A program made the position numbers and the translations under genes. From assembly GCA_016929135.1 (NCBI GenBank), contig JAFGJK010000013.1, positions 285-64,284 of the forward strand: a stretch of 64,000 bases of DNA, read 5' to 3'. Shown in pieces: positions 1 to 22,202 of this stretch. The DNA is from Spirochaetota bacterium (GTDB taxonomy: Bacteria > Spirochaetota > UBA4802 > UBA5550). Within the stretch, counting starts at the first letter, position 1, and every line of letters starts with the position of its first letter. Below the pieces are notes generated by a model. That model saw only the letters and a program-made list of their open reading frames with translations, did no database searches and was not told the origin of the DNA.

Positions 1-670
1 ATGCCGGCGTCGGGGTCCCTCCCTGGGAATCAAAGGATACCGTATACTGGTTTTTCGTCCATAGGGCATGGATCGTCGTGTCCCCCGACACCGTCATACT
101 TCCGAAATTCCACACGGTGCTGTAGGTACCGTCCGTAAACCAGCCGGCGAAGGTGTACCCGGTCAGGGAGGGATCGGGGGCAGGCTGCGTCGCCGTGGCG
201 CCGTAATTCACCGTCTGGGGCGACGGCACCGGGGTCCCCCCGTAGGTATTGAAGGAGACCGTGTATTGGTTGATATCCCATCGGGCGTAGAGGATCACAC
301 CGAGGGCGCCCATGGTGAGGGAATCCCCCGGTGCGTAGTCAATCCCGGTTCCGTCAGGCGCGGTGTTCCACATGGGGGTACCCAGGGTGTGCCCGGTCCT
401 GGCGAGGGAGCCGGTGTTCCCAAGGACTGTGACGCTCTGACCCTGGAGATAGATGGTCGTATCCTCCGGGGGCGTGCCGGAGGTGCTGCCGTTGCCGCTG
501 TAAGTCACCGACCTAATCTCGCTGGGCACCATATTAGTCATGTTCCCGTGGAGCACGTCGTAATAGGCGTCGCCGCAGGAGATGATGGAGAGGGTCAGAG
601 CCGCAGCACAGAGCATTACGGCAAAGAGCGGCTTATGCTTTCCGGTGTATCTGTTACTGGTAATTCTCAT
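1..670 (-). CDS. Lipoprotein with Listeria-Bacteroides (InlB B-repeat / Flg_new) repeats; 3' end runs off the window
   Basis: Absent from the ORF track because there is no stop inside the window. Reverse translation from the ATG at 670-668 gives MRITSNRYTGKHKPLFAVMLCAAALTLSIISCGD (lipobox LSIISC). It continues with units such as NQYTVSFNTYGGTPVPSPQTVNYGATATQPAPDPSLTGYTFAGWFTDGTYSTVWNFGSMTVSGDTTIHALWTKNQYTVSFDSQGGTP, which fit the YTVxF..GG...GYTFxGW...W.F...V..D.T..A.W repeat. Track ORF 68..787 (+) is its antisense shadow. Confidence 0.8.
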   Translation of the reverse strand, partial: MRITSNRYTGKHKPLFAVMLCAAALTLSIISCGDAYYDVLHGNMTNMVPSEIRSVTYSGNGSTSGTPPEDTTIYLQGQSVTVLGNTGSLARTGHTLGTPMWNTAPDGTGIDYAPGDSLTMGALGVILYARWDINQYTVSFNTYGGTPVPSPQTVNYGATATQPAPDPSLTGYTFAGWFTDGTYSTVWNFGSMTVSGDTTIHALWTKNQYTVSFDSQGGTPTPA

Positions 671-793: not shown

Positions 794-831
794 GGAACAA
801 GCTGTGCCTCTCAGGGAATGAACTGTGCGTA
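794..831 (-). promoter_or_regulatory. LytTR-type direct-repeat box A (two 9-mers, 12-nt spacer), upstream of the lipoprotein gene
   Basis: The minus strand reads tacgcACAGTTCATtccctgagaggcACAGCTTGTtcc. The 9-mers lie at 826-818 and 805-797, a 21-bp period. It matches box B (5090..5127) at 33/38 positions. A TTGACC hexamer (779-774, minus) follows 14 nt downstream, and the lipoprotein ATG lies about 124 nt downstream. Confidence 0.45.
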
Positions 832-920
832 TGGATCTTATTTTCAGGGACTGTGGGAAGTATCGTGAGGGCTCCCTGAGGGCTCTGCCCCCTTTTTATA
901 TAAATCCGAGACAATAGTGA

Positions 921-934
921 GCTTTGACCCCTCT
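921..934 (-). repeat. Left terminal inverted repeat (REP-like) of the transposase island
   Basis: gctttgacccctct is the exact reverse complement of 2009-2022. Confidence 0.8.
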
Positions 935-1000
935 TTTTTTTCATTTCTTGATAACTCAGACGTTTATACTATACAATACATTGATCAGCAGGAGGGACAC

Positions 1001-1591
1001 ATGCCAAGACCATTGCGTAATATTGCACAGGGTTTAACCCATCATACTTATAGCAGATGCCATGGTAAGAGAAATCTCCTCCAGGGAAAATATGGTAGAC
1101 TCTTTTTCATTGAAGCGGTTCGCCAATGCCAGGAAAAGTATGACTTTGCCCTTATAGCTGCTGAAATCGTTGCCAACCATATCCACCTTGTCATCAAAAC
1201 AGACCAAGGCAAACAAACGATCTCCCTTATTATGCAATACATCAAGGCAAGAATCGCGGAAAAGTACAATCGAGCCATGGGTATGACAGGAGCATTCTGG
1301 AATGAACGCTTCGGCTCCACGGTTATTGAGGAGTCAGAAAATCCGGAGGGGTATCTTCTGTGGCTTTTATGGTATATTGGATACAATCCTGTACGAAAGG
1401 GCCTGTCCCGAGATCCACGTTTGAATGATATTGGATTTATAAACTGCTACCTAAATAAAAATCATGAAGCACCAGTAAAGATCACACCACATCATTTCTT
1501 CATAAAACTTGGTGAGACATTCGAGGAGCGTATAAAAAAATTTATATTCTATGAAGATGCCTATCTCAGAAGACTGGCTGTGTATCTATGA
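1001..1591 (+). CDS. IS200-like / REP-associated tyrosine transposase (RAYT, HUH Y1 family)
   Basis: Taken from track ORF 917..1591. I prefer the ATG at 1001 (MPRPLRN), which is preceded by gcaggaggga. Motifs: HUH (IVANHIHLVIKT), FWNERFGSTVIE, and the catalytic Tyr region WYIGYNPVRKGL. These match the Y1_Tnp/RayT pattern (H-u-H ... FWxxRFxxxxI ... YIxxNPVxxGL). Confidence 0.8.
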   Translation: MPRPLRNIAQGLTHHTYSRCHGKRNLLQGKYGRLFFIEAVRQCQEKYDFALIAAEIVANHIHLVIKTDQGKQTISLIMQYIKARIAEKYNRAMGMTGAFWNERFGSTVIEESENPEGYLLWLLWYIGYNPVRKGLSRDPRLNDIGFINCYLNKNHEAPVKITPHHFFIKLGETFEERIKKFIFYEDAYLRRLAVYL

Positions 1592-2040: not shown

Positions 2041-4929
2041 TTATTGCATCTTTTCCCGCAGTGCCTCCAGAAAGGCCTGCCCCACCGGTAATTCGGTGCC
2101 ACCATCGCCGAGGCGTACCCGGTAACGTCCGGTGGGCTGGCGGGAGATCCCCCGGATGAAATCGATATTGACGATGTGGCTTCTGTGCACGCGGATGAAC
2201 AGGTCCGGCGGAAGGCGGTAAACGATATCCTTCATCAGGACCGGCACGTCCGTATCCCCATCAACCGTATGTATCACGGTGTGCTTCGACTGTGCCGTGA
2301 TATGGACGATCTCTCCGAACCTGATGGAGCGGGCCCTCTTCCCGATGCGGACGGTGATGCCCGCCGGGGCCGGTCTCTGTACGTTCCCGAGCTTCAGCAT
2401 CATGCCAACCCGCGCCAGAACCTCCCGCATGATGAAAGGCTTCACGATATAGTCGTTAGCCCCGGCCACGAATGCGGCGTCGATATCTGTCTTCCTGTTC
2501 TTCGCCGTAAGCATCACCACCGGGAGCTCCTTCGGGGACCGGCCGGCCCGGATCCTCCGGCACACCTCGTACCCGGACATGTCCGGCATCATGACGTCCA
2601 GGAGCACCAGATCCACCGGACCCTCCCGCTCCAGGATCTCCAGGGCTGTGACCCCGTCCGGGGCGGTCTTCACTGTGCCCCCCCCGGACTGCAGGCAGTT
2701 CCGGAGTAGGTCGAGATTCACCGGATCGTCGTCCACCACCAGGATGACCGGGGTCCCCTCGAAGAGGCCGTCATCGCCTCCGGAATGATCGGCCGAAACG
2801 GCATCATCCACCTTCCCCTGGATGACCGTTTCCCCCAGGGTAACGTCCGAGAAACCATCCGGAACGGGGAGCGTGAAGTGGAAGACCGAGCCGCCCCCCT
2901 CCCGGGGATCGACGCCGATGGTGCCGCCGTGGAGCTCCACGATCCGCCTGGCGATGGAGAGCCCCAGCCCCGTGCCGGGATAGGCCCGCGTATCACCCCC
3001 CTCTGCCTGCCGGTATGCCTCGAAGATCGTCTCCCGGTACTCCTCGGGAACGCCGATCCCGGTGTCCGATACGCGAACCTCCACCGACCCGCCGTTATCA
3101 TCACCCCCGTGCATGACCCTCGCTGACAGCTCCACCCGCCCGGCATTGGTGAACTTGACGGCGTTCCCCACCAGATTGAAGAGCACCTGCCGTATGCGCT
3201 CTTCGTCAGCCCACACCCTGGGGGTCTCCGTCCCGATGCCATTGACGATCTTCAGGGGCTTCCCCCCCGCCAGGGGGATCGACAGCCGCACCACCGATTC
3301 CCCCAGGGGATGGAGGTCAACCGGACGCAGGTTCAGGCTCAGCCCCTCCTCCTGCATCTTCGCCATGTCCAGCAGGTCGTTCACCATACCGGCAAGGCGG
3401 TGGCCGCTGGAGGAGATGAGGGAGAGATTCTCCAGGGCCTTCGGGGGGAGCCAGCCGGCGGCGCCGTCGATCATCGACTCCGACAGGCCGATCATGCCGT
3501 GGAGCGGGGTTCTGAGCTCGTGGGAGGTGCTGGCAAGAAACTGGTCCTTGAGGCGATCCAGCTTCGTGAGGGACTGGTTCTTCTCCTCCAGGTCCCGGGA
3601 GAGCTCCTCCACCCTCCCGAGGGCCCTGGCAAACCGTCGTGAGATGATCAGGGTGATGATCAGGCAGAAGAGCACTGTGCTGAAATGGATAATGTTGCCG
3701 GTATCGATGATCCACAGGGCGTACAGGATATTGTTGATCGCCCCCACCACCAGCGGTGAAAAGCCCGCAATGAATAGTACGGCGTCCTCCCGCCGGTTTC
3801 TCCAGATCCTGATAAAGACGTACAGACCGTAGAGGATGAAGAGGATGCAGAAGATGAAAAATATGCCGATTATTCTCTCGGAAGCCCTGAATCCCACGAA
3901 AAAAAGCGGCGTGATGAACACGACGGCAAGGACCTGATAGACCCGGAGCACGGCGGTGGAGAACTCCTCGGGGAAGAGCGATTTCATGGTCATGATGCAG
4001 AGGGTCATACCCAGCACCACCGTGGAATAGTCCAGCAGTAAGGGGTTCCCCGGATAGGAGAGGTCGCCGGAGAGGACCGGCGACTGCAGGTTGTAGGTGT
4101 TGACGGCAAAGACAAGGCTGAATAAGCCGATATACAGTGGCGCCTTGTTCTCGCTGCGGAAGAAATAGAGCAGTATGTTGTACATGGAGGCGAAGAGGAG
4201 CAGGCCCACGATGATCATGTCCACCGTGTGTCGACGATGTATTCGCCGCATCACCGCCGCTCCCTCTTCGATACTCGGTGCCACGCCGATGCCGCCCGAT
4301 TCGTAGTCCCGGTTCCACACCTGCAGGAGGAGCTCGTTTTCGCCCTTTTTCAGGGTGAAGAACGAGGTTCTCCTGCTGTTGATGAAGACATAGTCATCCC
4401 TGGTCCTCGGCGCTTCCTCTATCGTTCCCGCGGCGTCCGCCGGCACCCCGTTGATCCAGAGCCGGTAGGCGGAGTAGATACGGGGAAGGGTCAGGATCTG
4501 CCTCCCGGCAACCGCCCCCGCCTGTATCCGCAGTCGGTAGGTCCCCCTCCCCCTGCCGGTCAGGGGGACGCCGCCGATACCGTGCCCCTTCCACAGGCCA
4601 GGCACCGGCAGGTAGCCGCAGCCGCTCCGGGACGCGTTCCCCGCAAAGTCGGCGGGCGCCAAGATCCGGTCACGGCAGAACTCCCACTGCCCCTTAAGGT
4701 TCAGCGCACCGTCGTCTTCGAAGCTCCAGCTCCCCAGGTCCACCAGACCCTTCACCGCAGACGGGGGCTCACTCCCGGCGGCCAAGCCGCTGCTGGCGGT
4801 GCCGCTGCCGCAGGAGAATGCCAGTGCGACGACGCAGAGCAGCGCGGCTGAGAAGAGCAGTATGAGCCTTCCCACTGATCGGTTATTCATCATATTTCCG
4901 GTAGTGTCCCTCAGAACAGGCCGATACAT
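2041..4929 (-). CDS. Fused 7TMR-DISM sensor / histidine kinase / receiver / LytTR DNA-binding protein (paralogue 1)
   Basis: 962-aa track ORF; alternative starts at 4893/4890 (MMNNRS). Domains in order:
- signal/anchor LILLFSAALLCVVALAFSCG
- extracellular 7TMR-DISMED2-like region (VKGLVDLGSWSFEDDGALNLKGQWEFCRDRIL)
- about 7 TM helices
- H-box FLASTSHELRTPLHGMIGLSE
- HATPase boxes FNLVGNAVKFT, DTGIGV, GTGLGLSIARRIVELHGG
- REC (ILVVDDDPVNL, DLVLLDVMMPDMSGYEV, MLTAK)
- C-terminal LytTR (IRFGEIVHITAQSKHTVIHTVDGD, LPPDLFIRVHRSHIVNIDFI, YRVRLGDGGTELPV). Confidence 0.9.
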   Translation of the reverse strand: MYRPVLRDTTGNMMNNRSVGRLILLFSAALLCVVALAFSCGSGTASSGLAAGSEPPSAVKGLVDLGSWSFEDDGALNLKGQWEFCRDRILAPADFAGNASRSGCGYLPVPGLWKGHGIGGVPLTGRGRGTYRLRIQAGAVAGRQILTLPRIYSAYRLWINGVPADAAGTIEEAPRTRDDYVFINSRRTSFFTLKKGENELLLQVWNRDYESGGIGVAPSIEEGAAVMRRIHRRHTVDMIIVGLLLFASMYNILLYFFRSENKAPLYIGLFSLVFAVNTYNLQSPVLSGDLSYPGNPLLLDYSTVVLGMTLCIMTMKSLFPEEFSTAVLRVYQVLAVVFITPLFFVGFRASERIIGIFFIFCILFILYGLYVFIRIWRNRREDAVLFIAGFSPLVVGAINNILYALWIIDTGNIIHFSTVLFCLIITLIISRRFARALGRVEELSRDLEEKNQSLTKLDRLKDQFLASTSHELRTPLHGMIGLSESMIDGAAGWLPPKALENLSLISSSGHRLAGMVNDLLDMAKMQEEGLSLNLRPVDLHPLGESVVRLSIPLAGGKPLKIVNGIGTETPRVWADEERIRQVLFNLVGNAVKFTNAGRVELSARVMHGGDDNGGSVEVRVSDTGIGVPEEYRETIFEAYRQAEGGDTRAYPGTGLGLSIARRIVELHGGTIGVDPREGGGSVFHFTLPVPDGFSDVTLGETVIQGKVDDAVSADHSGGDDGLFEGTPVILVVDDDPVNLDLLRNCLQSGGGTVKTAPDGVTALEILEREGPVDLVLLDVMMPDMSGYEVCRRIRAGRSPKELPVVMLTAKNRKTDIDAAFVAGANDYIVKPFIMREVLARVGMMLKLGNVQRPAPAGITVRIGKRARSIRFGEIVHITAQSKHTVIHTVDGDTDVPVLMKDIVYRLPPDLFIRVHRSHIVNIDFIRGISRQPTGRYRVRLGDGGTELPVGQAFLEALREKMQ

Positions 4930-5089: not shown

Positions 5090-5127
5090 GGAATAAGCTG
5101 TGCCTGCAGGGGAATGAACTGTGCGTA
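5090..5127 (-). promoter_or_regulatory. LytTR-type direct-repeat box B, between the two fused kinase genes
   Basis: The minus strand reads tacgcACAGTTCATtcccctgcaggcACAGCTTATtcc: two 9-mers, a 12-nt spacer and a 21-bp period. It ends 4 nt from the stop codon of the upstream paralogue (5132). It lies about 160-200 nt upstream of the possible starts of the downstream paralogue. Confidence 0.45.
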
Positions 5128-5131
5128 AAAC

Positions 5132-7975
5132 TCATATTTTTTTCCGCAGCGACTCCAGGAAGGCCGGCCCCACCGGCAGCTCCGTGTCGTCGTCGTCCCT
5201 GAGGCGCACGCGGTAGCGCCCCGACAGGACATGGGACACGCTGTGGATGTAATCGGCGTTGACGATATGGCTCTTGTGGACCCGCACGAACAGGTCCGGC
5301 GGGAGCCGTTCGATGATCTCCTTCAGCATCACCGGCACCTCGATGTCCTGCTGGACCGTGTGGATTATGATCCTTTTCGAATGCGACGTGATGTAGACGA
5401 TCTCGCCGAACACGATGGAATAGGCCCTGTTCCTGTCGCGGATGGTTATACCCCGGGCGGCAGACCGCCGGACATTCCTGAGCTTCAGCATCGTGCGCAC
5501 CCGCGCCAGTAGCTCGGTGATCCGGAAGGGCTTCACGACGTAATCGTTTGCCCCGGCCGCGAAGGCGGCGTCTATGTCGGCCATCCTGTTCTTCGCCGTG
5601 AGCATGATTACCGGCAGCTCCTCCGGGGACCGCTCGGCCCGGATCCTCCGGCACACCTCGTACCCTGACATGACCGGCATCATGATATCCAGCAACACCA
5701 GGTCGATGGGGCCCTCCCGGTCGATGATCTCCAGGGCGGTAATTCCGTCGGGAGCCGCTTTCACCGTGCATCCCTTGGACTCCAGGTAATTCTGGATTAC
5801 TCTGAGGCTCACCGGGTCGTCGTCCACCGCCAGGAGGGCCGGGCTCCCGTCGAAGTTGCCGTCAGGTTCCGGCATGCCGGCGGCGGCTTCCGCGGGCCCG
5901 TCATCCAGGCTCTCGATGACGACCTCATCGGAGGCCTCAGGAGCCCGCTCGTCAGCCAGGGGGAGCGTAAAGGAGAAGACCGTACCCCCCTCTTTGCGGG
6001 GGGCCACGGCGATGGCGCCGCCGTGGAGCTCAACGATCTGTTTCGCGATTGCCAACCCCAGCCCCGTACCGCCGTAGACGCGCGTGTCCCCCCCGTCCGC
6101 CTGGCGGTAGGTCTCGAAGATCGCCTCCCGGTCCTCCTCCGGCACGCCGATCCCGGTGTCCGACACGCGCACCTCCACCGCACCGGCCGCGTCGTCCTCC
6201 TCTTCGTCACCGCCCACGACCCGCGCCGCCAGCTCCACCTGCCCCGTACTGGTGAACTTGACCGCGTTCCCCACCAGGTTGAAGAGCACCTGCCGTATCC
6301 GCTCCTCGTCGGCAAAAACCCTTGGGGTCCCCTGCCCGATGGCGTTGACGATCTCCAGGGGCTTCCCCCCCGCAAGGGGAATCGACAGCCGCACCACCGT
6401 ATCCCCCAGAATACGCAGGTCCACCGGGCGCAGATTCAGGCTCATCCCCTCCCCCTGCAGCTTCCCCATGTCCAGCAGGTCGTTCACCATGCCGGCCAGG
6501 CGGTGGCCGCTGGAGGAGATGAGGGAGAGGTTCTCTATTGCCTTCGGGGGGAGGCCCCCGGCGGCGCCGTCGATCATCGACTCCGACAGGCCGATCATCC
6601 CGTGGAGCGGCGTTCTGAGCTCGTGGGAGGTGCTGGCCAGGAACTGGTCCTTGAGCCGGTCCAGCTCCGTGAGGGAGAGGTTCTTCTCCTCCAGGTCCCG
6701 GGAGAGCTCCTCCACCTTGCCGAGGGCCCTGGAAAACCGCCGGGAGATGACCATGGTGGAGGTAAAGCAGAGCACCACCATGGCGTACTGGATGACGTTC
6801 CCGGTGTTGATGATCCACAGGGCGTAGAGTACGTTGTTTATCCCCGCGAGAAAGATGGAAACGAAGCCGACGAAAAACAGCAGGGCACCGTCTCTTCGGT
6901 TCTTTATAATCTGTACGAAGACGGACAGACCGTACATAATAAACAGGATGCAGACGATAAAATAAATCTTTATCACGATTTCCGCCGCTCTGAAGTCGAT
7001 AAAAAAAAGAAGAGTGATCAGAGCGGCGGCCGCCGCCTGGAAAAACCGGACAACTCCCATGGAAAAATCGTCCGGGAAGAGCGACTTCATGGTCATGACG
7101 ATCATTGTCATACCAAGGATGACCGTGATATAATTGATCAGGAAGGGGTTCCCGGGATAGGAGAGGCCGCCGGAGAGGATCGGCGACTGGATATTGTAGG
7201 TGTTAACTGCCCACACGATGCTCGTGAATCCGAGATACAGCGGCGACGCGTCCGTCTTCCGGGAAAAGAAGAAGAGGATGTTGTAGACGGAGGCGAAGAG
7301 CAGCAGGCCCACGACGATCATGTTGATCGAATGCCCCTGCAGGCCCCGCCGCATGACCCTCTCTCTATCGTCCAGCTGCAGGGGGCTGTCGATGCCCCCC
7401 GATTCGTACTCGCGGTTGGAGACCTGGAAGACCACCTCGTTCCTCCCCTCCTTCAGGGTGAAGGAGGGCTGCCGTATATTGTGAACGAAGATGTAATACT
7501 CCCCGGCACGGGCTGCCCCGTCCACACTCCCGATCGTATCCACCAGCGTCCCGTTGATCCAGAGCCGGTAGGCCGAATAGATCCGGTGTATGCCGAGGGT
7601 TGCAGCCTTTGCAGTGCCGTCGCTCAACAGTGTCAGCCGGTACGTGGCCCGACCCCTTCCGGGGAAACCGGCGCCGCCGGATTTCCGTTCCGTCCATAGT
7701 CCCGGGACCTCCATGTACCCGCAGCCCCCCCGTCCGGCCCCCTTCGCAAAATCCGCGGGCTCCAGCAGGCGGTCCCAGCAGAATTCCCACTCCCCGTCCA
7801 GGTTCACCGACCCGTCCCGTTCGAAGCTCCAGCCCTTGAGGTCCAGGACGCCCCTGACGGCAACGGGCCGCCGATCCGAGGAGCCGCGGTTGCATGCCGT
7901 CAATGCCGGAACGCACAGGCAGACTGCCATGGACAGCGCGGCGATGGTTCCATATGCCTTGCGGGACGCTCTCAT
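5132..7975 (-). CDS. Fused 7TMR-DISM sensor / histidine kinase / receiver / LytTR DNA-binding protein (paralogue 2)
   Basis: Track ORF 5132..8122. I prefer the ATG at 7975 (MRASRKAYGTIAALSMAVCLCVPALTAC, signal/lipobox-like); the upstream extension merely translates repeat box C. The domain order matches paralogue 1:
- VRGVLDLKGWSFERDGSVNLDGEWEFCWDRLL
- 7 TM helices
- FLASTSHELRTPLHGMIGLSE
- GTGLGLAIAKQIVELHGG
- LLAVDDDPVSL, DLVLLDIMMPVMSGYEV
- LytTR (IVFGEIVYITSHSKRIIIHTVQQD, LPPDLFVRVHKSHIVNADYI, YRVRLRDDDDTELPV)
The kinase core is roughly 85-90% identical to paralogue 1 by eye over about 165 aa. The sensor region is more diverged. Confidence 0.9.
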   Translation of the reverse strand: MRASRKAYGTIAALSMAVCLCVPALTACNRGSSDRRPVAVRGVLDLKGWSFERDGSVNLDGEWEFCWDRLLEPADFAKGAGRGGCGYMEVPGLWTERKSGGAGFPGRGRATYRLTLLSDGTAKAATLGIHRIYSAYRLWINGTLVDTIGSVDGAARAGEYYIFVHNIRQPSFTLKEGRNEVVFQVSNREYESGGIDSPLQLDDRERVMRRGLQGHSINMIVVGLLLFASVYNILFFFSRKTDASPLYLGFTSIVWAVNTYNIQSPILSGGLSYPGNPFLINYITVILGMTMIVMTMKSLFPDDFSMGVVRFFQAAAAALITLLFFIDFRAAEIVIKIYFIVCILFIMYGLSVFVQIIKNRRDGALLFFVGFVSIFLAGINNVLYALWIINTGNVIQYAMVVLCFTSTMVISRRFSRALGKVEELSRDLEEKNLSLTELDRLKDQFLASTSHELRTPLHGMIGLSESMIDGAAGGLPPKAIENLSLISSSGHRLAGMVNDLLDMGKLQGEGMSLNLRPVDLRILGDTVVRLSIPLAGGKPLEIVNAIGQGTPRVFADEERIRQVLFNLVGNAVKFTSTGQVELAARVVGGDEEEDDAAGAVEVRVSDTGIGVPEEDREAIFETYRQADGGDTRVYGGTGLGLAIAKQIVELHGGAIAVAPRKEGGTVFSFTLPLADERAPEASDEVVIESLDDGPAEAAAGMPEPDGNFDGSPALLAVDDDPVSLRVIQNYLESKGCTVKAAPDGITALEIIDREGPIDLVLLDIMMPVMSGYEVCRRIRAERSPEELPVIMLTAKNRMADIDAAFAAGANDYVVKPFRITELLARVRTMLKLRNVRRSAARGITIRDRNRAYSIVFGEIVYITSHSKRIIIHTVQQDIEVPVMLKEIIERLPPDLFVRVHKSHIVNADYIHSVSHVLSGRYRVRLRDDDDTELPVGPAFLESLRKKI

Positions 7976-8087
7976 AACAGCATTATTAATACTGCAGACC
8001 GGGCGAATTAGAAAGTGACATAATTGGATATTGCATCCATAATTCTGCAGAATGCAAGCACTAATTTCCCGTGAAGACGATATAGCC

Positions 8088-8125
8088 GGCGCACAGTTCA
8101 TTCCCTTCGACGCACAGTTCATTCC
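8088..8125 (+). promoter_or_regulatory. LytTR-type direct-repeat box C in the divergent region between paralogue 2 and the cyclase operon
   Basis: The plus strand reads ggcgcACAGTTCATtcccttcgacgcACAGTTCATtcc, with identical 9-mers at 8093-8101 and 8114-8122 and a 12-nt spacer. The ACAGTT reading direction points to the plus-strand promoter at 8154. A third consensus-fitting 9-mer, ACAGTTGAT (8157-8165), overlaps that promoter's -35/spacer. Confidence 0.5.
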
Positions 8126-8153
8126 GGAGAAGGCATATTTTAGTCGAACTCTG

Positions 8154-8182
8154 TTGACAGTTGATTAATCGAATTCTAATAT
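8154..8182 (+). promoter_or_regulatory. Sigma70-type promoter for the cyclase operon
   Basis: TTGACA (8154-8159), a 17-nt spacer (gttgattaatcgaattc), then TAATAT (8177-8182). Confidence 0.5.
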
Positions 8183-8422
8183 ACAGATGATACATACACC
8201 GATGCATCGATGTAACAGCATCCCGCTCCGTGTATTCGGTCGGGAAGGATTTGTGGAATACGATATCATTCACTACAGGATACCCATATCAATTCACCAG
8301 TCAAACATCTGATCGGAGAGAAGATAGGCGGTATCCGCATCTTCCCCATAGCCACGAAGATCGTCCTCATCTTCGTCTTTTTCATTCTGCTGTCAAACTT
8401 CACGTCCCACTACATCAGCCTC

Positions 8423-9997
8423 ATGCTCTACCGTGGCGAGATGATCATGATGATGAAGCAGCACCTGGTGAAGGACCTGAGGGACATCTACACCTTCGCC
8501 AAGACCCAGCACGAGATATCCCTCTCCGGGGGGACCCCGCAGGCCTGCCTCAAGGCGATCGAGGAGAAGTCCATGCTGGAATTCAAGAACAGGAATTCGC
8601 TCCTCCTGGGAATCCGGCAGGACGGGAGCATCCTCTTCCAGTCGTCTCGGGGCAAGCGCTTGGATGCCTTCCCGGACAGGGACGCCATGGACCTCTTCAA
8701 CAAAAACTTCAGGAAAAACGTCAAGGAGGGCTTCACCACCTTCACGCTCGAGGGGAAGCAGTTTTTCGGCGTCTACAAGTACAACATGGACTGGAACGCC
8801 TACTTCCTGCGTGCCGAGGAGTTCAACGAGTTCTACGCGCGCTCCAGGGTGATTTTCACCACCATATCCCTGGTGATCGGCGTCATCACGCTCCTCTGCG
8901 CGGTGGCCGGCGTCCTCATCCTCAGGCACGTGCTCAAATACATCGGGCAGATGACCCAGGCCATCATCGCCATGACCAGGGACAAGCAGATGGGCATCCT
9001 GGACCTCAAGGACGCACAGACCGATGACGTGACCTTCCTGGGCATGTCCTTCAACTCCCTGTCCAACACCATCAGCAATCTGCTGCAGATATTCCAGAAG
9101 TTCACCAACAGGGACATCGTGGTGAAGGCCTACGAGGAGCGCGAGATACGCCTCGAGGGGGCCAAGCACGAGCTTACCTGCCTCTTTTCGGACATCAAGA
9201 GCTTCACCAACATGACCGAGGTGCTGGGGACCGAGATCATCACCCTCCTGAACCTCCACTACACGCAGGTGATCAACATCATCCTGGGGCACGACGGGAT
9301 CATCGGCTCGATCATCGGCGACGCCCTCCTGGCGGTGTACGGCGTCTTCCCCGGCGATTCCGCGCGGCAGAAGTCCTACCAGGCGGTGATCACCGGGTAC
9401 CAGATCCACGATGTGGCAAGGCAGATCCGGAGCCAGATGATCGAGATGAGGGAGCGGATTATCGCTGAGAAGGGATCGCTCACCCCCGAGGAGGAGAGGG
9501 TCTACGAGGCGGTGCTGATCGACGTGGGCGTGGGGATCGACGGCGGCATGGTCTTCTACGGCAACATCGGAAGCCACGAGCGAATGACCAACACCGTCAT
9601 CGGCGACAACGTCAACTCCGCGTCGCGGCTCGAGGGCCTCAACCGGATCTACAAGATACCGGTGATCTGCTCTGAATACATCAAGCTGGACATCGAGAGG
9701 AACGTTCCCGAGACGAAGCTGAAATTCACCGAGATCGACACGGTCCGCGTAAAGGGGAAGACCGAGGGGAAGAAGATATACTGGCCCATCCCGAAGGAGA
9801 ATATGACCAAGGACATGCAGCGGCAGCTCGCGATATTCAGCGAGGGGCTGGCGTGGTACTACGCGGGAAAATGGAAGAGCGCCCGCAGGTCCTTCGAGCG
9901 CTGTACCCTCCCCATGGCGGAGGTCTTCCGCACTCGGACCGCCTCCGCGGAGTGTCCGAAGAACTGGGCGGGCATCTGGGCCATGGATTCCAAGTAA
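8423..9997 (+). CDS. Membrane HAMP / class III adenylate-guanylate cyclase (true start probably upstream of 8423)
   Basis: Cyclase motifs: LTCLFSDIKSFTNMTE, IGDALLAVYG, GIDGGMVFYGNIGS, IGDNVNSASRLEG. TM helix VIFTTISLVIGVITLLCAVAGVLIL is followed by a HAMP-like linker. The frame stays open upstream to 8216 and encodes a TM helix (IFPIATKIVLIFVFFILLSNF) with no ATG/GTG/TTG; see findings. Confidence 0.85.
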   Translation: MLYRGEMIMMMKQHLVKDLRDIYTFAKTQHEISLSGGTPQACLKAIEEKSMLEFKNRNSLLLGIRQDGSILFQSSRGKRLDAFPDRDAMDLFNKNFRKNVKEGFTTFTLEGKQFFGVYKYNMDWNAYFLRAEEFNEFYARSRVIFTTISLVIGVITLLCAVAGVLILRHVLKYIGQMTQAIIAMTRDKQMGILDLKDAQTDDVTFLGMSFNSLSNTISNLLQIFQKFTNRDIVVKAYEEREIRLEGAKHELTCLFSDIKSFTNMTEVLGTEIITLLNLHYTQVINIILGHDGIIGSIIGDALLAVYGVFPGDSARQKSYQAVITGYQIHDVARQIRSQMIEMRERIIAEKGSLTPEEERVYEAVLIDVGVGIDGGMVFYGNIGSHERMTNTVIGDNVNSASRLEGLNRIYKIPVICSEYIKLDIERNVPETKLKFTEIDTVRVKGKTEGKKIYWPIPKENMTKDMQRQLAIFSEGLAWYYAGKWKSARRSFERCTLPMAEVFRTRTASAECPKNWAGIWAMDSK

Positions 9998-10000
9998 GGG

Positions 10001-11149
10001 ATGACCCGAGGGGAAGCCGGAGCAATGAACAGGAGAGGCATCGCAGGGAAGAAGAACAAGGGGCTGCCCGAGGAGATGCCCACTTCCCTCTTTCTCAAGA
10101 AGGAGATGGTGGCGGCCGCGGAGAAGGCGGTGGTCTACAATCTCGCCGAGGAGTTCAGGACCACGAGAAAGAACAGGGGTTTCAGGCTCTACCTCGCCAT
10201 ACTCCTCTTCACCCTGTTGCTCCTTGGTGGCACCTTCGGCGCCACGTCCTACATCGAGCAGCGCAACAGGAACATCGCCATCGACATCACCGACTTCGAG
10301 GACATCAACATGCAGGAGCTCCTCTATGCCCTGCGGAACGCCGGCAAGCTGCTGGACGACATGAAGAACAACATGGAGCTGATGCGGGGTCAAATGAACG
10401 CGGAGATGGAGCGGCAGCGGCGGAAGGCCCTGGAGGAGATGGCGCTCCTCAAGAAACGGCATGACCTCTCCGACGCACAGAGGGCCGAGATGATGAAGCG
10501 AATCCTGGCGGCGCGGGACAGGCGGCTCGCGCAGACCAGCGCCCATTATGAAGACAAGATACGGAACAAGGAGAAGTCCATCGATGAGATGAACGCCAGG
10601 ATGGGGGATTACAAGAGCCAGCTCAAGCAGCAGATGGACAGCTACCTGACCAAGGTGCAGAGCAGGCTGAAGGAATACCAGAGCGAAACGGCGACGGACA
10701 AGGCGAAGACCCAGGATCTGATCGTCCAGATGGGGGAGGACCAGAGGCTGAAGCGCCTGGAGGACAAGAAGGAGTACGAGAAGAGGATCGCCGAGCTCAG
10801 GGACAGGATAAAGGAATCGGAAGAGAGCCTGAAGAGCACCACCGGCAGGGCCAACGAGTACGGCTACCTGCTGGACATGTACCGCAGGGCCCTGGTGCAC
10901 TACGCCTTTTTGCGGGGCGAGCAGGGGCACGTGATATGTCCGGAGAAGGACGGGCACTTCCTGGTGGTGCTCAATCCCCTGATGGAGCTGGAGACATCCT
11001 GCAAGGGGATGGTGATCGACCGAAACGGTGAGATCATCGCCAGGGTGGCCATCAACAGGGATCAGGGGGTCACACGGGCCCGCGTGCTGAACAAGGTGTC
11101 GCGCGCCCCCATCAGACCCTTCGACATGATCATCATCCAGAAGGAGTGA
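10001..11149 (+). CDS. Membrane-anchored coiled-coil protein, function unknown
   Basis: Starts 4 nt after the cyclase stop. One TM helix (FRLYLAILLFTLLLLGGTFGA), then about 200 aa of K/E/R/Q-rich heptad-like sequence and a roughly 100-aa C-terminal globular part. I recognise no family. Alternative start at 10025 (MNRRG). Confidence 0.6.
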   Translation: MTRGEAGAMNRRGIAGKKNKGLPEEMPTSLFLKKEMVAAAEKAVVYNLAEEFRTTRKNRGFRLYLAILLFTLLLLGGTFGATSYIEQRNRNIAIDITDFEDINMQELLYALRNAGKLLDDMKNNMELMRGQMNAEMERQRRKALEEMALLKKRHDLSDAQRAEMMKRILAARDRRLAQTSAHYEDKIRNKEKSIDEMNARMGDYKSQLKQQMDSYLTKVQSRLKEYQSETATDKAKTQDLIVQMGEDQRLKRLEDKKEYEKRIAELRDRIKESEESLKSTTGRANEYGYLLDMYRRALVHYAFLRGEQGHVICPEKDGHFLVVLNPLMELETSCKGMVIDRNGEIIARVAINRDQGVTRARVLNKVSRAPIRPFDMIIIQKE

Positions 11150-11154
11150 CTGCC

Positions 11155-12357
11155 ATGAAAAAACTGTTCCCCATCGCGGTCCTGCTTCTGCTGGCGCCCC
11201 TGTACGCGGACTGGGATGATTACGGTCTCACCCTGGTCTCCACCACCCCCTCCACCATGGAGGAGGCGACGAGATTCGAGGTGAAGGACCGGCAGGACCA
11301 CACCTTCTTCGTGAATGCCAGGAACCAGCCGGAGGGGGCGGCGATGCGGAGGATTCTGAGGTACAAGGACGACATCCTCGGCTGGCATCACGCCTCCTTC
11401 AGGGAGCTCTCGTTCTATATATACGAAAAGGGGATCCACGCGGTCTGCGTCCCCTACGCCGCCACCTACCGGAAGACCAACCTGATGAACCACCTCCCCT
11501 CGGGCTTTCTCTTCTTCGAGGAGAGGGAGGGGCTCAACTTCAGGTTCCGCATCGTCGTGGGGAGCACCTCGCTGAAGCTGGACGGCGTCTACAAGGGTGA
11601 GGAGCCGCTGCTGGAGGAGGTGTACCGCTACATCAAGGGGATCCGGGAAGGGAAGATCCAGGTGGAGGACGAGCGTGTCGTCTCGGGGAGCGTCGTCTCC
11701 TTCCCCGAGGAGAAGGACAAGGGGGACAAGCGGATCTATCCCACGGGCGACTTCCCCGACATCGAGAAGGCGCAGCAGGAGGCGCGGGAGAAAGAGGAGA
11801 GGGAGCGGGAGATGGGGAAGCCTGCCTTCTACGCATCCGCACAGGCGGCGTACCTCCTCCCGGTAAATATTCTGAGCGACATCTTTATCGGCGGCTACGG
11901 ATTCCTGGCGTCGGGGGGGCTGCGGGACATCGGCATCTCCCTGCAGGACAAGACTATCTTCAAGCTGGAGATGGAGCTTTCCACCGGCTACTGGCATCTG
12001 AGCGACCGGGAGCAGCAGGGCATCAGCACCGGCTGTTCCATGAATACCGCCTACATCGTACCGATCCTGTTCACCGCCCGGGGCCGCTTCGGACTCTTCA
12101 GGGAGCTCTCCGTCGCACCGGCGGTGAGTTTCGGCTACAACTTCAACAGGCTGAACTACACAAAGACGACGCTCACCGGGATCCCCTACTGCATGTCCGT
12201 GCGCCAGTGGAACCCCTCGTTCCTGCTGGGGCTCAGGTTCGATTACCGGTTCGAGAGGTTCTTCCTCTTCGCCGGCACCGATTTCATGGCCATGTTCGAG
12301 CGGCGAATGACCATCACCTCGCTCCTCTTCAACACCGGCGGCGGCTACCGCTTCTGA
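11155..12357 (+). CDS. Secreted protein, probable outer-membrane beta-barrel
   Basis: ATG at 11155 is preceded by gaaggag. Signal peptide MKKLFPIAVLLLLAPLYA. The C-terminal half has alternating hydrophobic/aromatic strands and ends GGGYRF (terminal aromatic, typical of beta-barrel OMPs). It overlaps the end of the previous gene. Confidence 0.6.
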   Translation: MKKLFPIAVLLLLAPLYADWDDYGLTLVSTTPSTMEEATRFEVKDRQDHTFFVNARNQPEGAAMRRILRYKDDILGWHHASFRELSFYIYEKGIHAVCVPYAATYRKTNLMNHLPSGFLFFEEREGLNFRFRIVVGSTSLKLDGVYKGEEPLLEEVYRYIKGIREGKIQVEDERVVSGSVVSFPEEKDKGDKRIYPTGDFPDIEKAQQEAREKEEREREMGKPAFYASAQAAYLLPVNILSDIFIGGYGFLASGGLRDIGISLQDKTIFKLEMELSTGYWHLSDREQQGISTGCSMNTAYIVPILFTARGRFGLFRELSVAPAVSFGYNFNRLNYTKTTLTGIPYCMSVRQWNPSFLLGLRFDYRFERFFLFAGTDFMAMFERRMTITSLLFNTGGGYRF

Positions 12358-12377
12358 CGCAGGCATCCCGGCAGCAC

Positions 12378-12399
12378 GGCGCCGCGGCGCCGCGGCGCC
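12378..12399. repeat. Perfect 22-bp GC palindrome, possible terminator hairpin without a U-tract
   Basis: ggcgccgcggcgccgcggcgcc equals its own reverse complement. It lies 21 nt after the stop at 12357 and is followed by caaaaaa rather than a T-run. Confidence 0.4.
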
Positions 12400-12409
12400 C
12401 AAAAAATCA

Positions 12410-12437
12410 TTGACACCACCCCCGAATCCCGTATACT
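12410..12437 (+). promoter_or_regulatory. Sigma70-type promoter for the lipase-like gene
   Basis: TTGACA (12410-12415), a 16-nt spacer, then TATACT (12432-12437). The RBS-like gaagagga lies ahead of the ATG at 12478. Confidence 0.5.
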
Positions 12438-12477
12438 GCATAACTGAATCCGTTCACTACTCTGAAGAGGATCAGCC

Positions 12478-13821
12478 ATGAAGATACAGTGGTTCGCGCC
12501 GGTGTCCCCGTTCAACCGCAGCGCAATCCCGGCCTCCCGTTGCGTCCGGCTTCGCAGGTTCGCGGCGGCCCTCCTGGCCCTGGCACTCCTGGTCCCGCTG
12601 TGCCGCTGCAGCAGCGACGACTCCGGCGATCCGACCCTGTACGACTACATCGCCATGCCCTTCACCGCCGGGCCGGTGTACCGCTACGACTCCATGGAGG
12701 GACCGCAGCGGGGGCGCCTCCTCACCTCGCAGCAGAAATGGGACCTTTCGCAATCCACATTCAACACCCTGGTATCCCTCTTCATGACCTATTTCGGCAC
12801 CTCGCTCACAACCTATCCCCTGTTCGCCCCCGACAACGGCGCCAGGTTTCACTATATCACCTACGAGACCCTGAACACCGACGGCAGCCTGGTCACCGTA
12901 TCCGGCGCCCTCTGGGTCCCTACCGACGCCACGCCCACGCGGCTCCTGGCCTACGGCCACGGTACCATGATCAACTCGGACATCACCAGCTCCAGGATCG
13001 AACCGGGCCTCTTCGCCGGCAAGGGGTACATGGCGGTCTCCTCGGACTACCTGGGCTACGGCGCCAGCGAGGCCCTGGGGCACCCCTACTGCCATGCCAG
13101 GACCATGGCAATCTCCACCATCGACGCCATACGGGCCGCCAGGAAGTTCGCGAAGTACAACGGCATCGCCCTCGCCAACAGCGACATCATCATCGTCGGC
13201 TACTCCGAGGGGGGGATGACCGCCATGGCCACCACCAAGGCCATCGCCGAGGATTCGTCCCTCACCGCCGAGTTCACCATCTACAGATCGGCCCCCATGT
13301 CGGGCCCCTACGACATCCGCGGCACCGCCGATGCGCTGATACAGTACAACACGAAGGTGGTACCCCACTACCTCTGCTTCATCATCCCGGCCTACGACAG
13401 GGCCTACGGCCTCAACCGGCCCCTGGACCACTACCTGCGGGAGCCCTACGCCACCTGGTTCACCGAGGATCCCATCCCCAGACCGGACGCCGAGGCGATC
13501 GCAGAGCTGCTCCCCACGAACTCCAGCGACCTCCTCCAGGACGCCTTCATCTACGACTACACCCACTACGGCGAGGTGCAGATAAAGGCCGCCCTGGACG
13601 ACAACAACACCTATAAATTCAAACCGTTGATACCGATCAAGCTGTACGCCGGGAATGGAGACACCCACGTTCCCGTCGCCAACACCAATACGGCACTGGC
13701 CTATTTCGCGTCCGTCAGCGCCCCGTCCGTCACCAGTGACATCAAATCCGCCGGCGCCGGCGACCACGGGGCCCTGGTGCTCCCCTGCTTCTACGATGCC
13801 ATCACCACTTATTTCCCGTGA
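12478..13821 (+). CDS. Lipoprotein, alpha/beta-hydrolase (secretory lipase-like)
   Basis: Signal with lipobox-like LLVPLCRCSS. Nucleophile elbow VGYSEGG, and candidate acid/His residues in GNGDTHVP and GAGDHGAL. Confidence 0.65.
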   Translation: MKIQWFAPVSPFNRSAIPASRCVRLRRFAAALLALALLVPLCRCSSDDSGDPTLYDYIAMPFTAGPVYRYDSMEGPQRGRLLTSQQKWDLSQSTFNTLVSLFMTYFGTSLTTYPLFAPDNGARFHYITYETLNTDGSLVTVSGALWVPTDATPTRLLAYGHGTMINSDITSSRIEPGLFAGKGYMAVSSDYLGYGASEALGHPYCHARTMAISTIDAIRAARKFAKYNGIALANSDIIIVGYSEGGMTAMATTKAIAEDSSLTAEFTIYRSAPMSGPYDIRGTADALIQYNTKVVPHYLCFIIPAYDRAYGLNRPLDHYLREPYATWFTEDPIPRPDAEAIAELLPTNSSDLLQDAFIYDYTHYGEVQIKAALDDNNTYKFKPLIPIKLYAGNGDTHVPVANTNTALAYFASVSAPSVTSDIKSAGAGDHGALVLPCFYDAITTYFP

Positions 13822-13847
13822 TACGGTGATTTCCGGCGCCTCCAGGC

Positions 13848-14102
13848 ATGAACGGAAACGGCACGCCGCCTGAAACGGGAATGATCGCGGCCATCGTCCT
13901 GCCGGGGGCCGCCTGGCTCCACCGCGGGCCGGTGATATTCTGGCACACCCCCCTGCAGGGCGCCCCGTCGGATTACGGGCTCCCCCTGTGGGCCCTCTAC
14001 GCCCTCTGGGTCCTCTTCCTGGCCCTCCTCTACCCCCTGTGCCGCCGGTACGCCGCGGTGAAGTTCCGCCCCGATGCCCCCTCCTGGATGCGGTACCTGT
14101 GA
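13848..14102 (+). pseudogene. Possible C-terminal remnant of a DUF1624/acyltransferase-like membrane protein
   Basis: The 84-aa ORF ends in WALYALWVLFLALLYPLCRRYAAVKFRPDAPSWMRYL. From memory, this resembles the conserved C-terminus (YPLCRWF...K.R....WLSYL) of about 380-aa DUF1624 proteins. Only the tail is present, directly after the preceding gene. Confidence 0.3.
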
Positions 14103-14329
14103 GGAGATTCCGCCGTATGCAGACCCTTCATCAGCCACAATAAATTTTCCATCCGTGCAGTTTTTCGCTAAGAATTGCCTTGACAAATTTCGATATATAG
14201 TCAGGATGCCTATGATGGTAACGCCGCAAATTCCTTCTATAATCTTACCCGCGATCAGTGACGTAAAATCATAGTAGTATTTGGGCCGACCCCTCGGGCA
14301 TAATGCCAAACAACACTCAGGAGTTTCTC

Positions 14330-14530
14330 ATGTCGAAAGGTACAGTAAAATGGTTCAACGATCAGAAGGGTTTCGGATTCATCACCTCCGAAGACGGCGG
14401 CGATGTCTTCGTTCACCACTCAGCGATCCTCGGTGAAGGGTTCAAGACCCTGCAGGAGGGCGCGAAGGTGCAGTTCCAGGTTGAACAGAGCGACCGAGGT
14501 CCCCGGGCCATTCAGGTCTCCGTCGAATAA
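14330..14530 (+). CDS. Cold-shock protein (CspA family)
   Basis: [33 protein letters not shown] carries the RNP1 (KGFGFI) and RNP2 (VFVHH) motifs. The internal ATG of track ORF 14303..14530 was chosen because aggag lies 7 nt upstream. Confidence 0.9.
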
Positions 14531-14551
14531 GACGGCATCATCACGACACGG

Positions 14552-14590
14552 AAAAGGGGCTGTTCCGAAGGGGCAGCCCCTTTGTTTTAT
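14552..14590 (+). terminator. Rho-independent terminator after csp
   Basis: aaggggctg / cagcccctt form a 9-bp stem with an 11-nt loop, followed by tttgtttt. Confidence 0.65.
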
Positions 14591-14615
14591 CCTCGCGCTG
14601 GCCGGCGCGCTCTCT

Positions 14616-15635
14616 CTAACGATCGCTCCTCCGCAGCAGCTCCTGTATCTCCCGCAGCAGCACCGGCGCATGTTCCCGTTCAATGAGGTGCCCCATCCCG
14701 TCAACGACCAGAAGCCTGGCCCCCGGGATCATGGCCGAATACTTCTCCGTGTGCCCGAGGGGTATAATCGGATCCTGCGTGCCGTGGATCACCAGCACCG
14801 GCACCCGTATCCTCCCCAGCTCGCCGTACCGGGAGCCCGATGCGGCGATGGCGGCGGAGTGCTGGCGGCTCGCCTCTGGGTTGAAGCCCCGGCGGCGGCG
14901 CATCTCGTAGAGTGTCGATCCCGCGATCTCCCTCAGGTCGGGCTCGTGGTCCCGCCCCCCCTGCAACAGTCGCATAAATCCGGCCGCAAACCGGGCCATC
15001 CCCCGCTCCCCCCCCAGTATGGCGTACCGCAGATAGAGCCGCACGATGTCACCCTGGACGCTCCCCTCCCCCCGGGGGAGCGCCGGGTCGTTGAAGTAAC
15101 CCGAGGAGCTCATGGATGTCATGGAGCGCACCCTCCCGGGGTAGCTGATGGCCAGTCGCTGGGCTATCATCCCCCCCATGGAGATGCCGATGACGTGGGC
15201 CTTCTCCACCCCTGCGGCATCCAGCACCGCCACCGCATCCTTCGCCATGTCCTCCAGCGTGCAGGGACCGTCAATTCGGTCCGATATTCCCACGCCCCGA
15301 TGATCGTAACGAATGACACGATATCCTGCCTTCATCAGGGGATCGATGAAGTAGTCTGGCCACCCCAGGGCCGTGGCACTGGCACCCATCACCAGGAGGA
15401 CCGCAGTGCCGGGCCTCCTTGCGGTGCCGATGGACTCGTACCAGATATTCGCGCCGCGCGAGCGGGCGATCCCGGTCGTCCCCTTCACCAGCTCCGGGGG
15501 GCCGGTGCGAAGCACCTCGTCAATTGCCTCGTCGGTCCCCGGCGGAAGCGGCGGGGCGGAGATGCAGACCACGGCAACCGCCACGGCGGCCAGCAGCGCC
15601 AGCATGCCGGCGGCGACAGCAATTTTCTTGATCAT
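14616..15635 (-). CDS. Alpha/beta-fold hydrolase with N-terminal membrane anchor
   Basis: MIKKIAVAAGMLALLAAVAVAVVCI anchor; HG-type region LLVMGASATALGW; nucleophile elbow IGISMGGMIA; C-terminal GMGHL. Confidence 0.75.
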   Translation of the reverse strand: MIKKIAVAAGMLALLAAVAVAVVCISAPPLPPGTDEAIDEVLRTGPPELVKGTTGIARSRGANIWYESIGTARRPGTAVLLVMGASATALGWPDYFIDPLMKAGYRVIRYDHRGVGISDRIDGPCTLEDMAKDAVAVLDAAGVEKAHVIGISMGGMIAQRLAISYPGRVRSMTSMSSSGYFNDPALPRGEGSVQGDIVRLYLRYAILGGERGMARFAAGFMRLLQGGRDHEPDLREIAGSTLYEMRRRRGFNPEASRQHSAAIAASGSRYGELGRIRVPVLVIHGTQDPIIPLGHTEKYSAMIPGARLLVVDGMGHLIEREHAPVLLREIQELLRRSDR

Positions 15636-15654
15636 GGTACTCCTCCTCTGTCTT

Positions 15655-17490: not shown

Positions 17491-17638
17491 CCCTTGGCAG
17501 GAGATTCCCGCACGCCCCCTCGGTTCCCCCGGTCAGGAGGACAGGGGGGCACAATGCCAGGGGGAAGAATTATCCCGTAAAATGCAAGATTTTTTCCCCT
17601 TGGCCCTTCGTCGGCCACGTCATTATGGAGCCGTGACA

Positions 17639-18394: not shown

Positions 18395-18531
18395 GCGTCA
18401 CCTCGACGATAACCTTTCTGAGCCGGGAACCCATCACCGGCCTTCATAAGTAAAGGCCAGAGGGGAGCCCGTGTCAACCGAATTCCGGGTGGCAGAGCTT
18501 CCAGGGGCACCCCCGGCCGGACACCTCCCCG

Positions 18532-19398: not shown

Positions 19399-19402
19399 GG
19401 CG

Positions 19403-20215: not shown

Positions 20216-20218
20216 TCC

Positions 20219-22185: not shown

Positions 22186-22202
22186 CTGGCCGTCTCTTTT
22201 TC

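Follow-up and report, generated by a model that had tools for sequence, protein, structure and literature searches.

A conserved direct-repeat box of the LytTR-bound kind is a predicted operator beside hybrid sensor kinase genes and a cyclase operon of uncultured Spirochaetota

The best-known LytTR-domain regulators are soluble response regulators that act in the quorum sensing and virulence of Gram-positive bacteria; lately stand-alone and sensor-tethered forms have also become known. We have analysed a 64,000-nucleotide stretch of Spirochaetota DNA (assembly GCA_016929135.1, contig JAFGJK010000013.1, positions 285 to 64,284 of the forward strand; hereafter the window), whose source is annotated as a Spirochaetes bacterium metagenome-assembled genome (MAG). 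We describe here a direct-repeat array, Box C, lying between the gene of a hybrid kinase with a C-terminal LytTR domain and a divergently oriented cyclase operon. Box C is likely a cis operator for the LytTR domains of two neighbouring hybrids, through which they would aid transcription of the cyclase operon. Boxes A, B and C denote boxes within the 64-kb window, and labels such as L001 or L003 denote loci from other genomes.

The closest described operators are of the AgrA type. PMC5600425 gives the LytTR rule as a half-site [TA][AC][CA]GTTN[AG][TG], with 12-13 bp between the repeats and a position upstream of the -35 hexamer. The same 9-bp imperfect direct-repeat design as found here is seen in the AgrA boxes of the agr P2/P3 promoters of Staphylococcus aureus and in the ComE, PlnC and FsrA sites (PMC5600425, PMC4227749), and AgrA-dependent promoters are known for suboptimal spacers (PMC4227749). 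The repeats of LytTR systems have been reported to be direct, to be spaced by 12 bp and to show a "strong bias" toward a position 10 bp upstream of the -35 hexamer (PMC6193735).

In half-site and spacing, Box C followed this design. Re-reading the sequence bore out the 9-mer pair, the N12 spacing and the coordinates of the first-pass annotation, with ACAGTTCAT located on the plus strand at 8093-8101 and 8114-8122, separated by a 12-nt spacer and thus repeated with a period of 21. Both copies fitted the half-site consensus at 9/9 positions, the repeats were direct and not inverted, and the spacer fell within the 12-13 bp rule. The ACAGTT core is the same as in AgrA's ACAGTTAAG. The pattern WMMGTTNRK-N12-WMMGTTNRK had one match in 64 kb and none in 100 shuffles, and the exact 9-mer occurred only four times in the window, always in intergenic bipartite boxes adjoining the two LytTR-fusion genes. 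The true repeat unit proved longer than the 9-mer. The plus strand at 8087-8125 reads CGGCGCACAGTTCATTCCcttCGACGCACAGTTCATTCC, in which the two copies share an exact 15-nt identity (CGCACAGTTCATTCC at 8090-8104 and 8111-8125) and agree at 17/18 nt (8087-8104 vs 8108-8125); the unit is the 16-mer RCGCACAGTTCATTCC. The array and the promoter candidate beyond it comprise:

8089..8104, plus strand: Box C unit 1 (distal), GCGCACAGTTCATTCC, core ACAGTTCAT at 8093-8101; 23.7 bits in a matrix from foreign genomes
8110..8125, plus strand: Box C unit 2, ACGCACAGTTCATTCC, core at 8114-8122, 21 bp past unit 1; 25.9 bits
8131..8146, plus strand: Box C unit 3, degenerate, in phase, AGGCATATTTTAGTCG; ends 7 nt ahead of the -35 hexamer
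8154..8182, plus strand: candidate sigma-70-type promoter, TTGACA (8154-8159), 17-nt spacer, TAATAT (8177-8182); 10/12 matches; predicted for the cyclase operon
8157..8165, plus strand: ACAGTTGAT, a generic-consensus 9-mer overlapping the -35 hexamer and spacer; 0.7 bits in the 16-mer frame

Two further boxes were found in the window, and both are placed next to the hybrid genes or a surface-protein gene:

5090..5126, minus strand: Box B, ACGCACAGTTCATTCC-cctgc-AGGCACAGCTTATTCC, 5 nt past the stop codon of hybrid paralogue 2 and upstream of paralogue 1
794..830, minus strand: Box A, ACGCACAGTTCATTCC-ctgag-AGGCACAGCTTGTTCC, upstream of a Flg_new lipoprotein gene
5132..7975, minus strand: hybrid paralogue 2, 947 aa, 7TMR-DISM seven-transmembrane (7TM) region, HisKA, HATPase_c, receiver (REC) and LytTR by Pfam
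2041..4929, minus strand: hybrid paralogue 1, 962 aa, same five-domain architecture by Pfam
1..670, minus strand: lipoprotein gene with Listeria-Bacteroides repeat (Flg_new), starting at 670 and running off the window; putative target of Box A

We have scored the window with a 16-nt weight matrix that was built solely from the boxes of other genomes. Box C (49.7 bits), Box B (46.5 bits) and Box A (45.1 bits) ranked as the first three pairs, while the next independent pair reached 12.0 bits and the best pair in 30 shuffles 15.3 bits. Pairs with both halves of at least 10 bits were present only at spacing 21, and at none of the other spacings 18-24, 31 and 32. No further box was detected in the other 56 kb of the window.

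The proteins encoded beside these boxes combined 7TMR-DISM_7TM, HisKA, HATPase_c, Response_reg and LytTR matches in one polypeptide in both paralogues, with the Pfam LytTR matches at the C-termini (E=2e-19 and 4e-19). The two LytTR domains were 62% identical to each other and aligned with the AgrA structures 3bs1 and 4xqq. The H-box SHELRTPL and the receiver motif DLVLLD were readable in the translations. The output domain is LytTR, and Pfam gave no HTH_AraC match. The first-pass start of paralogue 2 at 7975 matched a 947-aa NCBI protein (P0001, identical to the NCBI MAG Spirochaetes protein), and all homologues started at the equivalent position. This start means that the extension of the open reading frame (ORF) 5132..8122 through the repeat is not coding; both this ORF and 8061..8273 are artefacts that, as had been noted, merely read through the repeat.

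About 75 homologues with the identical five-domain architecture were detected, and those with a named source came almost all from Spirochaetota MAGs. No NCBIfam model reached its cut-off for the family, and literature searches on the motif string and on spirochaete histidine kinase-receiver-LytTR (HK-REC-LytTR) hybrids returned nothing relevant. This is a family of single-polypeptide sensor-kinase-receiver-LytTR proteins of uncultured spirochaetes, undescribed in the literature searched.

The hybrids resembled several known regulators in part. As in the AgrA type, where the LytTR domain downstream of a receiver binds the repeats, receiver and LytTR are joined; however, AgrA is a soluble response regulator working with an AgrC-type kinase and a peptide signal, whereas here LytTR forms the C-terminus of a 7TM HisKA hybrid. 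Nothing resembling agrB or agrD was seen in the neighbouring genes. The HdrRM/BrsRM-type systems have a 12-bp spacer and a 10-bp distance to the -35 hexamer, and are autoregulatory from a site beside the regulator gene (PMC6193735), but they use a small stand-alone LytTR protein with a separate membrane inhibitor and no phosphorelay, in place of one polypeptide. CoxC, too, binds DNA from the membrane, with its LytTR domain attached to a 7TM sensor (PMC11347149). It differs in having no kinase or receiver, in repeats that overlap the -35 hexamer and in repressing; the half-site, TTCNNGCA for RcoM, is different too. The Bacteroides HTCS ("hybrid transmembrane transcription regulators") likewise carry sensor, HisKA, HATPase, receiver and DNA-binding domain in one protein (PMC10269533, PMC11253607) and act on genes beside their own. 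Their output is an AraC-type helix-turn-helix and not LytTR, and their sensors are periplasmic glycan binders and not 7TMR-DISM. Hybrids of the HTCS type have been reported as enriched in Bacteroidota, Rhodothermia and Chloroflexota; Spirochaetota were not named.

The first-pass annotation had regarded Box C as a LytTR-type pair serving the cyclase-operon promoter and tied to the adjacent LytTR fusions. This gained support from other genomes, as at least 15 further Spirochaetota MAGs had a bipartite box with the 21-bp period beside an orthologous HK-REC-LytTR gene. We have fetched the genomic neighbourhoods of nine hybrid homologues, and 7/9 contained a box with the same 16-mer and the 21-bp period. 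Seven of the neighbourhood boxes adjoined the hybrid gene, directly following its stop codon except in L008, where the box lay just upstream of a divergent hybrid gene; two further boxes were more distant (L001, L007). Where the 4 kb fetched upstream of cyclase operons with 58% identity contained no HK-REC-LytTR gene, the box was missing as well. In L011, whose hybrid is 51% identical, no box was recognisable; the hybrid gene and a 321-aa gene have promoters (9908-9950 and 16744-16790) that share the motif AAAWTGATTGATTCA-N3-G.C.C..TTCATTA, which may be a diverged operator.

A compilation from the window and from loci in further Spirochaetota MAGs gave 27 distinct boxes. Their consensus was ACGCACAGTTCATTCC-N5-A(C/G/A)GCAC(A/C)GTTC(A/G)TTCC (AsGCACmGTTCrTTCC for the second unit), with a period of 21 in all 27, and the units stayed conserved while spacers and flanks diverged. 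Within the unit G3, C4, C6 and T10 were invariant and A5, T14, C15 and C16 nearly so; for 15 sites this invariance was partly imposed by the search pattern, and the 12 independently found sites gave the same picture. By this alignment the unit of the family is the 14-16-mer GCACAGTTCATTCC, which extends beyond the 9-mer alone and contrasts with the 9-bp repeats of the AgrA type. The promoter-proximal unit was the more degenerate one, as reported for AgrA sites (PMC5600425).

The position of the boxes relative to the hybrid genes was also fixed. In 11/13 loci (L001, L003, L005, L007, L010, L022, L024, L028, L035, L038 and the window at 5126-5134, among them) the box began 8 nt past the last conserved codon (..LRKKI/M) of the HK-REC-LytTR gene, an interval made up of the stop codon and 4-6 more nt, or else of a two-codon extension whose stop codon overlaps the box. 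Such fixed spacing suggests that gene end and operator travel as one module. In L009 the hybrid ORF reads through the entire box and ends in the -35 region. Downstream of the boxes lay the cyclase trio (window, L001, L003, L009, L024, L036, L039/L042, L043), Flg_new lipoproteins (L001, and twice in L007), an FG-GAP protein (L005, L010) or a CstA-Cache-cyclase protein (L008), and FecR-domain, CsgG-like and He_PIG proteins were further recurrent targets. Across these loci the box was shown to be associated, at the level of gene neighbourhood, exclusively with one family of LytTR-bearing hybrid kinases. Judged by this conservation, the repeat is an evolutionarily conserved control site of the LytTR-bound kind.

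The promoters themselves were similarly regular. In 20/26 boxes a TTGACA-like (TTGNNN) hexamer followed the proximal 16-mer at 7-8 nt (10-11 nt past the 9-mer core, as in the HdrRM/BrsRM type), with a 17-nt spacer to a TATAAT-like (TAnnnT-like) hexamer and no unit overlapping the promoter. The TTGACA-17-TAATAT element announced for positions 8154-8182 was indeed present, and its -35 hexamer and the TCTA of its -10 region were kept in the orthologous intergenic regions L036 and L039. Box B was followed by a weak CTGACG-17-CATTTT at +7.

The perfect pair of Box C ended 31 nt (9-mer frame) or 28 nt (16-mer frame) before the -35 hexamer, the family norm being 10-11 nt and 7-8 nt, respectively. The slot held by the proximal unit in most other boxes was occupied by unit 3, which scored 6.5-6.8 bits, a value reached by a fraction of 2.7e-4 of the window positions. 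As read from these scores, Box C is a three-unit array of two perfect units and one decayed unit. A displacement of the strong pair by two helical turns would keep its face relative to the polymerase, and the three units may be occupied cooperatively, in an arrangement comparable to the CoxC and RcoM operators with their three direct repeats at 12-13-bp spacing (PMC11347149).

The closest orthologous intergenic regions, L036 and L039/L042 (cyclase 75% identical, equal divergent layout), have just two units, abutting the -35 hexamer at 8 nt, and in comparison with L036 and L039 the window carries about 20 extra nt between the perfect pair and the conserved TTGACA. The 21-bp duplication could thus be a recent neutral slippage copy, with units 2 and 3, or their remains, as the working operator and an extra perfect copy that adds nothing or even weakens control. 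We consider this unlikely, even though the identity of the units extends beyond the core and Box C alone among the 27 has a third in-phase unit. The family often has perfect or near-perfect pairs that bear no mark of a recent duplication (L021, L028, L035, L041, L030), so that identity would reflect selection for the consensus. Moreover, unit 3 reaches only 6.5 bits compared with 16-27 bits for working halves, which would make an operator of units 2 and 3 much poorer than any other box, and the extra length of 20-21 bp keeps the helical phase. A neutral duplication is possible for the third copy only, and the reading of Box C as an operator is unaffected by it.

A further consensus-fitting 9-mer, ACAGTTGAT at 8157-8165, had been put forward as a third site. 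The 9-mer is there and overlaps the -35 hexamer and spacer as described; as a binding unit it was rejected, with its 0.7 bits, no family flanks (the invariant GC..TCC) and no counterpart in the closest orthologous promoters (L036/L039). Lacking flanks and conservation, it probably arose by chance, from a GTT that happens to follow TTGACA. The suggested analogy with agr P2/P3 also proved weak: agr has two arrays with divergent promoters, whereas Box C is one array in one orientation, toward the cyclase, and no box facing paralogue 2 was found on the minus strand at 7976-8300.

Activation is favoured over repression because the boxes sit upstream of the -35 hexamer. Nevertheless, the box could be bound by a different regulator, or could be a repressor operator instead of an activator site; if LytTR represses, occupancy could reach unit 3 and the ACAGTTGAT motif overlapping the -35 hexamer, which does fit the general 9-mer consensus. 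Many of the box promoters have near-consensus -35/-10 hexamers and an optimal 17-bp spacer (18-20 nt for AgrA) and could fire unaided, and CoxC, whose operator like that of RcoM has three direct repeats, represses by -35 overlap (PMC11347149). We hold either variant to be very unlikely. The box co-occurs with HK-REC-LytTR genes and is physically joined to their 3' ends, a linkage that makes another binding protein improbable, and its period, half-site and 10-bp distance to the -35 hexamer are the LytTR activator arrangement. In addition, no unit lies over the promoter in 20/26 boxes, and the 8157 site has neither the flanks nor the conservation.

Several observations weigh against Box C as an activating LytTR operator. 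The near-consensus promoters, set against the suboptimal spacers of AgrA-dependent ones, leave strict activator dependence uncertain, and a role as repressor or modulator, as for membrane-bound CoxC (PMC11347149), may apply. Even the window's own boxes depart from one geometry: in Box C the perfect pair stands one 21-bp period farther from the -35 hexamer than the family norm, and the TTGACC of Box A (774-779) lies at +14 instead of the usual +7. Upstream of a close cyclase orthologue, L006 (74% identity), no box was recognisable. The residues aligned with the AgrA base contacts His169 and Asn201 were Lys and Lys, so that likeness to the AgrA half-site would not rest on the same side chains. 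Comparison of half-site position 7 (A or C) with LytTR residues in 19 domains gave no partitioning column and was uninformative.

We have then considered whether the repeat is a dispersed element of the repetitive extragenic palindrome (REP)/bacterial interspersed mosaic element (BIME) or miniature inverted-repeat transposable element (MITE) type, perhaps tied to an IS200-like Y1 gene and with no regulatory role. Three boxes within 8 kb, one of them close to such a gene (Y1_Tnp, 917-1591), would suit this explanation. The strict pattern GCACMGTTYRYTMC-N7-GCACNNNTYRYTMC was scanned over one genome per species (185,579 species, the source genome not among them) and matched at 30 places. Eighteen of the 30 were in Spirochaetota/Leptospirales MAGs, at 1-3 per genome, including one match each in the two largest contigs (4.27 and 4.95 Mb). 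All 17 of these not cut by a contig end had a hexamer 7-8 nt downstream (17/17), TTGACA-like except in L028, and a hybrid gene was found within the 8 kb fetched in 10/18.

The remaining 12 matches came from Ruminococcus, Agathobacter, Clostridia, Paenibacillus, Pirellula and Desulfatiglandaceae, and lay in repetitive, apparently coding or tandem sequence with no promoter after them and no hybrid relative nearby. As LytTR boxes they were judged by eye to be unrelated, the tandem repeats of Pirellula and Desulfatiglandaceae included. These latter are 21-bp tandem repeats that fit the pattern (L027 599-650, Pirellula MAG, GGCACCGTTCGTTCC...; L033 1260-1303, Desulfatiglandaceae MAG, GTGCACAGTTTGCTCC...).

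With so few copies per genome the repeat is not a REP or MITE, the outcome that the first-pass annotation had named as decisive against its proposal, and a dispersed element is scarcely credible on other counts as well. The box repeats directly and shows no dyad symmetry, and the Box C region folded worse than shuffles (z=+1.8); no more copies were present in the remaining 56 kb; and the copies stand at constant distances from promoters and from the stop codon of a single gene family. The transposase has its own, different inverted repeats, outside of which Box A lies; a REP-associated tyrosine transposase (RAYT) link of this gene was rejected, as its motifs differ. Likewise rejected was an RNA element or a terminator behind the kinase gene, with no Rfam match, no dyad symmetry and no stable fold.

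The genes predicted to be transcribed from the Box C promoter are:

8288..9997, plus strand: class III adenylate/guanylate cyclase with N-terminal membrane segment (Pfam Guanylate_cyc); first gene of the operon
10001-11149, plus strand: second gene, coiled-coil-like, 382 aa; no known family
11146-12357, plus strand: third gene, 403 aa, signal peptide; no known family

The genes at 10001..12357 were always found together with the cyclase and are tightly packed, and the trio was conserved in L001, L003, L006, L009, L024, L036 and L042-L047. No NCBIfam names were found for the operon proteins. Between the stop at 8213 and the ATG at 8423 the cyclase frame lacks any ATG, GTG or TTG, yet from about 8288 on it encodes a hydrophobic N-terminus that is conserved. 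An ATC at 8288 stands 7 nt past AGGA (8277-8280); at the aligned position L036 and L039 have ATC, and L043 has ATG-ATC. The cyclase start is probably this non-canonical ATC, and the alignment suggests that such a start is conserved in three genomes.

Other features were noted around the boxes. Upstream of paralogue 2 there is a perfect 12-bp palindrome, ATTCTGCAGAAT (8042-8053), and a 19-nt direct repeat, GCATTATTAATACTGCAGA / GCATCCATAATTCTGCAGA, with copies 53 bp apart (7980-8051); neither is conserved in L036/L039. Near Box A lies one further gene:

917-1591, plus strand: IS200-like Y1 transposase gene (Y1_Tnp, Pfam), about 90 bp from Box A

It belongs to an insert of 41% GC (917-2022) that stands between Box A (830) and the paralogue 1 stop (2041). 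Inverted repeats GCTTTGACCCCTCTTTT at 921-937 and 2006-2022 flank the transposase, and a second motif, AGGGCTCTGCCCCC, is repeated around the insert at 879-892 and 1882-1895. On the minus strand at 831-860, the 25 or so nt just ahead of Box A look like the remnant of an HK-REC-LytTR 3' end, the string CTTCC..AGTC.CTG..AAAATA.GA aligning with the end of paralogue 2 and its orthologues. Box A was probably once a "stop codon + 5 nt" box of a paralogue, before a rearrangement or insertion.

The LytTR operator reading of Box C can be put as a mechanism. A signal sensed at the membrane would lead to autophosphorylation and to phosphotransfer within the same molecule to the receiver. The hybrid kinase being dimeric, it would present two LytTR domains, which would bind two direct half-sites 21 bp apart; as 21 bp are two helical turns, the half-sites would lie on the same DNA face. 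Bound just upstream of the -35 hexamer, the hybrid would help RNA polymerase to transcribe the cyclase / coiled-coil / 403-aa operon. Boxes A and B, of the same design, would control the surface lipoprotein gene and paralogue 1, forming a small local regulon in which control of the second paralogue through Box B would be a feed-forward or positive loop. We infer LytTR binding, activation rather than repression, and the transcription start from sequence, and on this basis the hybrids appear to switch on the cyclic-nucleotide cyclase operon and surface-protein genes.

One MAG contig, L007, contains three tandem units of HK-REC-LytTR gene, box and Flg_new surface-protein gene (10001-22850), which suggests that the regulator-box module amplifies as a cassette. 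More tentatively, and with a low chance of being right, the HK-REC-LytTR gene and the box about 5 nt past its stop may be a self-contained, duplicating regulator-operator cassette acting mainly in cis, since a regulator made at and staying in the membrane would act mainly on the promoter attached to its own gene. If so, cassette amplification (three in L007, two in the window) would give each target gene a private membrane sensor, and the cassette would be a LytTR-based phosphorelay counterpart of the Bacteroides HTCS with the rigid stop-to-operator spacing as its signature.

LytTR-type operators are of a known kind; the domain architecture that this one would serve is not described in the literature searched. 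The predicted operator is unusually well defined, with a 14-16-nt half-site, a 21-bp period and a fixed -35 distance, and the three units of Box C are a natural experiment on the distance and helical phase of a LytTR dimer relative to its promoter. Although the organisms are uncultured, the system can be tested directly with synthetic DNA and purified domains. One DNA-recognition logic would serve the roughly 75 detected single-polypeptide hybrids of uncultured Spirochaetota. Its recognisable target set, a class III cyclase operon together with envelope and surface proteins, would link an envelope sensor to cyclic-nucleotide signalling.

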